Of a DNA stretch of 64,000 nt, positions 19,128-21,089 are shown in pieces. A model generated the notes under the pieces. The model had not been told where the DNA came from, did not search any database, and worked only from the letters and a program-made list of their open reading frames with translations. Position 1 is the first letter of the stretch; the number at the start of each line of letters is the position of its first letter. Source of the stretch: Bdellovibrionales bacterium (GTDB lineage: Bacteria > Bdellovibrionota > Bdellovibrionia > Bdellovibrionales > UBA1609); the NCBI GenBank assembly GCA_020850475.1, contig JADZEO010000113.1:631-64630 (forward strand), given 5' to 3'. The position numbers and the translations under genes were made by a program.

Positions 19128-21089
19128 ATGAGGACGCGTTTACTAGGAGTTGCTCTACTCAGCTCCGCTCTCGTCGCTGCTGTGGCCTTTGCCGCAGGTA
19201 ACGCTGGCGAGGGAAAAAAGAAGGCCGCCACCTGCGCAGCTTGCCACGGTGGAGACGGAGTCAGTCTAAACCCAATTTACCCCAGCCTCGCCGGCCAAAA
19301 AGACGCTTACCTCGTTAAGCAGATGAAGGCTTTCAAAGCCGGTGAACGTAAGGACCCCACCATGAGTCCCATGGCGGCCGGTCTGAGTGACACCGACATT
19401 GAAAACCTCGCGGCGCATTTTTCAAGCCTCAGCACTCCGGCGCCTGCGCCTGCTGGTGGAAAAACTGTCAGTAAAACTGAAGTCAAATATGAGGGCGCTC
19501 CTTCTGGTATCGACCCAGGCTTCGTTTCCGTTTCGACGGAGGTGGGCCCAAAAGATCGTCTGAATGCCGCGCAGTTTGATAAAGCTAAGCAAATCTATTT
19601 TGAGCGCTGCGCAGGCTGCCACGGAGTTCTTCGTAAAGGTGCCACGGGTAAACCACTGACGACCGATATCACTCGTAAAGTCGGCAAGGATTACCTGAAG
19701 AACTTTATCACTTATGGTTCGCCCGCTGGTATGCCCAACTGGGGAACCTCAGGCAGCCTCACTGCGGACCAGATCGACTTGATGGCTAAATATTTGCTCC
19801 ATGAGCCGCCGACTCCTCCCGAGTGGGGCCTCAAAGAGATGCAAGCTTCTTGGAAAATGATCATTCCTCCAGATCAACGCCCCAAGAAACAAATGAACAA
19901 ATATAATCTCAAGAATCTCTTCTCTGTTACTTTGCGTGACGTGGGTCAGGTAGCATTGATTGACGGTGATTCTAAAAAGATCATCAACGTAGTTAAGACC
20001 GGATACGCGGTTCACATTTCTCGCCTGTCGAACTCCGGCCGTTATCTCTACGTGATCGGTCGCGATGCCAAGATCAATTTGATCGACTTGTGGATGGAAA
20101 CTCCTGACAACGTAGCGGAAATCAAAGTTGGCCTTGAGGCTCGTTCAGTTGAAACCTCCAAGTACAAAGGCTACGAAGACAAGTATGCGGTGGCAGGCTC
20201 TTACTGGCCCCCTCAATTTGTAATCATGAAGGGCGACACCTTGGAGCCCCTTAAGATTGTTGCGACTCGCGGGATGACTGTGAGTAAGCAAGAGTACCAC
20301 CCCGAGCCGCGAGTTGCCGCTATCGTCGCCTCTCACCAGCATCCTGAGTTCATCGTGAACGTGAAGGAAACTGGCAAGGTCATGTTGGTGGATTACTCTG
20401 ATATCGACAATCTTAAGATCACCAACATCGGCACCGCTGAATTCCTTCATGACGGTGGCTGGGATCACACGCACCGTTATTTTATGTCGGCGGCTAACAA
20501 GTCGAATAAGATTGCCGTTATCGATTCCAAAGAGCGCAAGCTGGCGAAGTTGGTTGATGTGGGTCAAATCCCCCATCCCGGCCGCGGTGCTAACTTTAAG
20601 GACCCGAAGCATGGTTGGGTGTGGGCAACTAGCCACCTCGGCGATGACTCGGTTTCTTTGATCTCAACTGAAGGCAAGAGTGCTTGGTCGGTGGTTCGCA
20701 CTCTCAAAGGTCAGGGCGGCGGTTCTTTATTCATTAAGACTCACCCGAAATCAAAAAACCTTTGGATCGACACCACTCTGAATCCTGATGAAAAACTCAG
20801 CCAATCAGTGGCCGTTTACGACATTGGTAACCTTGATAAGGGTTTTGAACGCGTCGATATCGCCACCATGGCACAATTGGGCGACGGTCCCAAACGCGTG
20901 GTTCAACCTGAGTACAACGAAGCCGGAGACGAGGTGTGGTTCTCGGTATGGAATAACGCCAACCAAACCTCGGCCCTCGTGGTCCTTGATGACAAAACTC
21001 GCAAGCTTAAAGCGGTCATCAAAGATGCTCGTTTAGTGACTCCCACAGGTAAGTTTAATGTCTTAAACACCATGAAGGACATTTACTAG
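19128..21089 (+). CDS. nirS: Cytochrome cd1 nitrite reductase with an additional N-terminal c-type cytochrome domain
   Basis: It has a signal peptide, CAACH (C36) and CAGCH (C161), then [53 protein letters not shown] and TPTGKFNV of the d1 propeller. The RBS is GGAGGAG. Confidence 0.96.

Follow-up and report, generated by a model that had tools for sequence, protein, structure and literature searches.

The analyzed window, i.e., the whole stretch of 64,000 nucleotides from a Bdellovibrionales bacterium (positions 631 to 64,630 of contig JADZEO010000113.1, GenBank assembly GCA_020850475.1), contains at positions 19128-21089 of its forward strand a nirS gene. Its 653-residue product is predicted to consist, in this order, of a Sec signal peptide, a class I cytochrome c, a variable linker and a complete NirS of the Pseudomonas aeruginosa type. 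The cd1 nitrite reductase NirS is a textbook two-heme enzyme; how diffusible cytochrome c551, cytochrome c552 or azurin supplies it with electrons has been a subject of study for decades. The gene is preceded by a GGAGG Shine-Dalgarno site at approximately 19116-19120, 7 nucleotides 5' of the ATG at 19128, within an untranslated leader (19084-19127) delimited by sequence reading and by the RNA contigs described below. The signal peptide (residues 1-23, 19128-19196) was recognized by eye, no predictor being run, from its positive N-terminus, hydrophobic core and AFA-A cleavage motif, and its residues 2-20 form a single helix in an AlphaFold2 (AF2) model. The extra cytochrome c domain, hereafter the N-domain (residues 24-101, 19197-19430), contains CAACH at C36-H40, IYPSLAGQ, and DPTMSPM with the axial Met79, and is matched by Cytochrom_C (PF00034) over residues 28-101 with 57 bits against a cut-off of 21.3. 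It is followed by a flexible linker of Ala, Pro, Lys and Gly that includes PAPAPA (residues 102-115, 19431-19472) and by the canonical NirS N-terminal arm with Y121 (residues 116-145, 19473-19562). The NirS heme c domain (residues 146-255, 19563-19892; Cytochrome_CBB3, PF13442, over residues 149-223) carries CAGCH at C161-H165 and M202, while the eight-bladed heme d1 propeller (residues 256-653 plus stop, 19893-21089; Cytochrom_D1, PF02239, over residues 260-648, 481 bits against a cut-off of 25.5) carries H296, H441 and H483. The coordinates of the gene and the elements that the initial annotation had listed, i.e., signal peptide, CAACH, PSLAGQ, TMSPM, PAPAPA, arm motif and CAGCH, were all recovered in the translation and by Pfam. 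A bidirectional terminator-like hairpin (21163-21177) lies between nirS and a convergent FNT channel gene.

Residues 116-653, and only these, align end to end with P. aeruginosa NirS (PDB 1nir, 1bl9, 5guw; E 1e-257, 860 bits), and the arm boundaries were set by alignment to 1bl9 and 5guw. In this alignment Y121 is equivalent to Tyr10 of the arm, H165 and M202 to His51 and Met88, H296 to the proximal heme d1 ligand His182, and H441 and H483 to the active-site residues His327 and His369. Among 44 aligned homologues C161, C164, H165 and M202 are invariant and residue 121 is Tyr in 41 and Phe in three; the histidines at 296, 441 and 483 are invariant in the alignment of clade homologues. Every defining feature examined was found, and residues 116-653 are thus predicted to be a bona fide NirS. 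The active-site histidines, which set NirS apart from NirN and NirF, together with the presence of separate nirN and nirF genes, rule out that the gene is a paralogue of either. Compared with the P. aeruginosa enzyme, the window protein has approximately 92 additional mature N-terminal residues (24-115), comprising the second heme c domain and the linker; no chain in the PDB spans both the N-domain (residues 1-100) and a cd1 core. In the AF2 monomer the helical N-domain (pLDDT, the predicted local distance difference test, ~75-92) and the propeller, with its β-propeller strand pattern, are confident, whereas pLDDT falls below 50 across residues 105-136, i.e., linker and arm. The three-heme c-c-d1 architecture proposed by the initial annotation is therefore supported by domain layout and conserved ligands: the protein would be a c-c-d1 NirS in which an additional class I cytochrome c is joined to the canonical Tyr arm, both c sites presumably being occupied by heme.

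The N-domain has the N-terminal CxxCH, the distal Met and the family-level match of class I cytochromes of the c552/c4 type, and over its whole length (residues 23-105) it matches soluble cytochromes c552 and c4 of known structure (4o1w, 6q2u, 1cno, 1etp; E 1e-19 to 1e-24). The best of these matches are c552 4o1w (E 1.4e-23), c552 1cno (E 8.5e-22), which we take to be that of Marinobacter hydrocarbonoclasticus, and c4 6q2u. The c552 of M. hydrocarbonoclasticus is named, together with NirM, as a known electron transporter of NirS in a preprint on NirC (10.1101/2020.02.21.959056). The CxxCH and Met pattern of the window domain is that of the soluble proteins, the difference being that it is covalently tethered while they diffuse. 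Free-standing secreted monoheme homologues (open reading frames (ORFs) of ~110 residues, ~90 of them mature; 54-66% identity) occur in three genomes of the same family that lack nirS (G391:C39:7629-7889, G304:C11:11972-12265 and G235:C1:866552-866857), and these cluster beside the window N-domain in a weakly resolved tree.

Conservation indicates that the extra domain is maintained. In the 44-sequence alignment C36, C39, H40, G41, G44, P52 and M79 are invariant, while the stretch that separates the end of the domain from the Tyr of the arm varies across the clade from 11 to 31 residues and is rich in Ala, Lys, Gly, Ser and Pro. Ratios of nonsynonymous to synonymous substitution rates (dN/dS), computed from the window DNA against the 86%-identical allele of the closest relative, are 0.055 for the N-domain, 0.089 for the c domain and 0.049 for the d1 domain, as opposed to 0.49 for the linker. 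Purifying selection thus acts on the N-domain just as it does on the d1 domain, and the N-domain value and the invariant ligands rule out a heme-free, degenerate remnant. Furthermore, divergences of N-domain and core co-vary (Mantel r 0.51, a value reached in none of 2000 permutations), which fits a single old fusion that would have been inherited as a unit.

The window copy does not stand alone. The survey of homologues covered the best 120 clusters, formed at 90% identity, in a collection of 5.8 billion proteins, with sources comprising NCBI metagenome-assembled genomes (MAGs), JGI, ENA and Logan and with names including Bdellovibrionales, Gammaproteobacteria, Pseudomonadales and Candidatus Schekmanbacteria. 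The homologues that bear the name Bdellovibrionales show 69-72% identity. The search for NirS sequences with two CxxCH motifs that the initial annotation had proposed was positive for 119 of these 120 clusters, the motifs lying at ~35 and ~160, and all 120 are 643-682 residues long except for the window's own shortened call of 572 residues. In a tree of 118 rows built on the c-d1 core only, the 43 proteins of the window type, i.e., those with a CxxCH spacing of 116-135, all fall into one group (Shimodaira-Hasegawa-like approximate likelihood ratio test (SH-aLRT) 99). The architecture marks a coherent and environmentally widespread, yet minority, NirS clade. Among reference genomes the window type is indeed a minority: NirS was detected in only four of 401 genomes of the window's own phylum, two fused and two unfused, and when 401 genomes were sampled evenly from the phylum to which Marinobacter belongs, none of the 57 NirS matches aligned before query residue 89.

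A second NirS type with two CxxCH motifs, here termed ‘long’, has a CxxCH spacing of 150-163 and ~700 residues and is represented by 14 species representatives (loci L021, L024, L034, L035, L053, L059, L063, L065, L066, L068, L072, L075, L078 and L080) from Steroidobacteraceae, Lysobacterales, Hahellaceae, Marinicellaceae and one Acidimicrobiia MAG. In the core tree it is nested among one-heme gammaproteobacterial NirS, and its N-domains form a separate clade in the N-domain tree; an extra cytochrome c has therefore been joined to NirS at least twice. The closest solved relative of the ‘long’-type N-domain is the tethered cytochrome of a three-domain copper (Cu) nitrite reductase (3ziy, E 4e-32), and this domain shares its family with the tethered, C-terminal cytochromes c of Ralstonia pickettii (3ziy/4ax3) and of 2zoo, so that the same module was apparently attached to both of these unrelated nitrite reductases. 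A simple fusion of NirS with a normally adjacent c552-like gene is not supported as the origin of the window type, since an N-domain-like gene lies within 5 kb in only three of 62 one-heme nirS loci.

Two published accounts bear on this distribution. A C1-C2-NirS chimera has been described in Chloroflexi, its C1 domain being proposed as a NirM-like donor, and was stated to be unique to that phylum, with relatives of C1 in Nitrospirae, Nitrospinae and NorC-like proteins (Schwartz et al. 2022, PMC8756737); a NirS phylogeny of 2024 mentions only the Chloroflexi case of an extra cytochrome (PMC10999283). The Chloroflexi protein (RJP53747.1) shares with the window protein the order of N-terminal cytochrome c, NirS c domain and d1 propeller. 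It differs, as far as a comparison of its C1 by description goes, in that the window clade occurs in Bdellovibrionales, Gammaproteobacteria, Pseudomonadales and Schekmanbacteria MAGs and has a c4/c552-type N-domain with P-x-LAGQ. No account of the architecture of the window clade was found in the library searched, an absence that is not proof. The initial annotation had allowed that the architecture might already be common in NirS clades, and this largely holds, given a whole clade, a second fusion type and the Chloroflexi case.

The public gene call for the window nirS (P0002) comprises only 572 residues and starts at Met82, thereby hiding the signal peptide and the first heme site (19128-19370). 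This call is the one observation that speaks for the long ORF being an artefact, i.e., a small cytochrome gene misjoined to nirS, as the initial annotation had itself considered in the form of a sequencing error, or an ORF whose true start is Met82. Contigs from three independent DNA runs, however, span 18800-21200 in frame with eight substitutions and no gaps or indels, and the nirS stretch recurs in 20 or more public runs, drawn from 14 studies of wastewater, activated sludge, sediment, bioreactors and biofilm. RNA contigs were obtained in all three metatranscriptomes inspected; they start at 19081-19093, 5' of the ATG at 19128, and end at 21103-21153, just short of the hairpin, one metatranscriptome spanning the gene with two contigs that overlap at 19875-19883. 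Both CxxCH motifs are held in one protein in the 119 homologous clusters, and the gene call for the nirS of the closest relative, at 86% identity, comprises 653 residues. Misjoining, whether in assembly or by sequencing error, is excluded by these independent assemblies, RNA contigs and homologues, and the low N-domain dN/dS speaks equally against an artefact. An internal start at Met82 is ruled out by the strong Shine-Dalgarno site in front of the ATG at 19128, by the upstream RNA 5' end and by the signal peptide, which only the long form possesses. An artefact of either kind is thus extremely improbable, and the fused nirS design is real and expressed.

The depth of RNA words on nirS is 12-19, above that of the upstream gene, and in the three metatranscriptomes no RNA contig covers 18860-19080 or the downstream FNT gene. 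It follows from the extents of the RNA contigs and the uncovered neighbors that nirS is its own transcription unit, with an mRNA that includes the N-domain from its start. No FNR/Dnr-type box was evident by eye 5' of the RNA start, no pattern scan being made.

The genes for heme d1 synthesis (nirE, nirDLGH, nirJ, nirF and nirN) all lie within the window, at 32029-40071. On the reverse strand these are nirJ (32029-33219; NCBIfam TIGR04051, 588 bits), a nirH-like gene (33225-33728) and a nirDLG fusion of 558 residues with three AhbA/B-like repeats (33721-35397), the latter two matched by siroheme decarboxylase models, and nirE (35847-36689), of the SUMT type. The forward strand carries nirC (c55X; 36863-37234), which encodes a 123-residue monoheme cytochrome matching 6tp9 (E 3e-21) directly in front of nirF (37231-38397) and nirN (38401-40071), both of which were identified as cd1-like tblastn matches. 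A TrpD-like gene (30740-32038, a weak PRK07394 match) overlaps the end of nirJ.

The nirS gene itself is flanked by two divergent operons of the heme-copper oxidase type (COX2-like, COX1-like, SCO1/SenC) at 13633-18859 and 21988-25274. Against CtaD, with its cut-off of 671, their subunits I reach only 78-81 bits, the subunit II of the second operon has an N-terminal cytochrome c, and both enzymes are candidate non-canonical nitric oxide (NO) reductases. Directly upstream of nirS, at 16817-18859, lies a gene for a 680-residue protein in which a cytochrome b (b6/petB-like) is fused to two 4Fe-4S ferredoxin motifs; this position is kept in the closest relative, and the fusion may represent a module for quinol oxidation in this genome, which lacks cytochrome c1. 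Relative to its closest relative (L083/L084, compared over window positions 16548-35240) the locus is a mosaic: the flanks are 98-99% identical, the nirS body (~19200-21088) shows ~80% DNA identity, and 4.2 kb at 21089-25266 (FNT channel, cytochrome c-CuA subunit II, subunit I and SCO1) are missing from the relative. This looks like allele replacement and insertion by recombination; both nirS alleles retain the N-domain. Elsewhere in the fused clade nirS was found with nirC-nirF-nirN, as a monocistronic gene behind Rrf2 or Crp-type regulators, or beside haoAB. In the latter case, the contig of homologue P0029 from another lineage, a multiheme HAO-like gene and a HaoB_nitrify gene come after the fused c-c-d1 nirS, a hint of a connection with hydroxylamine/NO metabolism rather than with classical denitrification.

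With regard to soluble carriers, the estimated completeness of the genome is 100%. The claim of the initial annotation that no separate nirM is present stands in so far as no part of the genome matched c551 above the family cut-off, but the nirC homologue at 36863-37234 of the same window had been overlooked. Neither a PF00127 cupredoxin nor a cytochrome c1 was found in the genome, while four loci paralogous to the N-domain were, on contigs C35 and C127 (c552-like) and C118 and C53 (c4-like). The genome also contains narG (C157, 1445 bits); no match above the family cut-off was returned by NapA or clade II NosZ, the clade I NosZ model not being searched.

We propose that the protein is a periplasmic three-heme cd1 enzyme that, like P. 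aeruginosa NirS, would reduce nitrite to NO at heme d1, and that the c552/c4-type monoheme cytochrome, fused in front of the Tyr arm via a flexible linker of approximately 15-20 residues, probably serves as a tethered site of electron entry or relay. The N-domain would accept electrons either from a quinol-oxidizing complex in the membrane or from a further periplasmic cytochrome; these would then move on to the resident heme c and thence to heme d1, an intramolecular step that would replace the diffusion-limited docking of a soluble donor such as c551, c552 or azurin. The direction and rate of this transfer, and which protein feeds the N-domain, are what we infer. The two features looked for in a tethered redox partner of the kind seen in RpNiR or caa3 oxidase, homology to free soluble carriers and a variable flexible linker between conserved domains, were both found. 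This proposal is favored because the domain is homologous to soluble carriers, because the canonical donors are missing and because no nirM adjoins the window nirS and none of six distinct fused-nirS contexts inspected has an adjacent gene of the nirM, nirT or nirB type, whereas a small CxxCH ORF lies within 5 kb in 47 of 62 one-heme nirS loci, a count that is crude since stop-to-stop ORFs and short contigs were used. The principle has a counterpart among Cu nitrite reductases, whose tethered cytochromes have been studied well, in the three-domain enzymes of R. pickettii (RpNiR, 3ziy/4ax3) and Pseudoalteromonas haloplanktis (2zoo), in which an attached class I cytochrome c acts as a fused redox partner, although RpNiR has an unrelated Cu core, a C-terminal tether and a cytochrome of another subfamily than the window N-domain.

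Beyond the crudeness of that count, several points weigh against tethered electron entry. No biochemical study of a c-c-d1 form, or of any member of the fused clade, was found in the literature; the AF2 model, being a monomer, is silent on heme-heme distances. Work on cytochrome-tethered Cu nitrite reductase suggests that the roles of tethered domains can be more complex than that of a simple fused partner (PMC13324648). Moreover, the tethered cytochrome in turn depends on a reductant, and the genome keeps the free c552-like and c4-like cytochromes as well as the nirC homologue, so that the enzyme need not be independent of soluble carriers. The description of the protein by the initial annotation as a NirS with its own electron donor is plausible as a proposal.

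A bolder version of electron entry through the N-domain, which we regard as improbable, holds that the c552-like domain lets the NirS dimer draw electrons straight from a membrane quinol dehydrogenase, the upstream cytochrome b/2x[4Fe-4S] fusion being the candidate, which would yield a bc1-independent nitrite-respiring chain without a soluble carrier. Delivery might then even occur across the dimer, to the partner subunit, because the N-domain hangs on an arm that is swapped between subunits in P. aeruginosa NirS.

The same gene neighborhood allows a different view of the extra cytochrome, namely that it is mainly a docking or wiring module which holds NirS at a membrane partner and does not substitute for NirM, the partner being either the cytochrome b/2x[4Fe-4S] fusion or one of the two flanking NOR-like heme-copper enzymes, in a supercomplex that would channel electrons, NO or both. 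The placement of nirS between the two COX2/COX1/SCO1 operons and directly after the fusion gene, the upstream synteny with the closest relative and the lack of cytochrome c1 are all in keeping with this, and a complex of NirS with the NO reductase cNOR has been solved (5guw, matched in the PDB search). Other members of the fused clade, however, have quite different neighbors, and the domain therefore cannot be specific to the upstream or flanking partner of the window; in addition, nirS is transcribed apart from the upstream gene in the RNA data. On balance a docking role as the main function seems unlikely. In cd1 enzymes the release of NO is tied to the redox state of heme c, and an additional heme might accordingly act as an electron store or regulator that keeps heme c reduced for fast exit of NO from d1, or that protects against O2 or NO, without being an obligatory point of entry. 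Extra redox capacity or NO detoxification was also weighed for the Chloroflexi C1 domain (PMC8756737). No sequence feature sets such a role apart from that of a simple relay, and ordinary carriers have the same His/Met-ligated, c552-like fold; we hold a primarily storing or regulatory function to be still less likely than docking, and tethered entry or relay to be the probable role of the domain.

These findings correct the published impression that an N-terminal extra cytochrome on NirS is unique to Chloroflexi, and the 572-residue call illustrates, as a lesson for annotation, that a shortened start can hide an entire additional heme domain. The c-c-d1 NirS is a naturally tethered, widespread and expressed form of the enzyme that recurs in wastewater, sludge and sediment metagenomes, and it would provide a convenient system in which to study inter-domain electron transfer in NirS, in parallel to the cytochrome-tethered Cu nitrite reductases.

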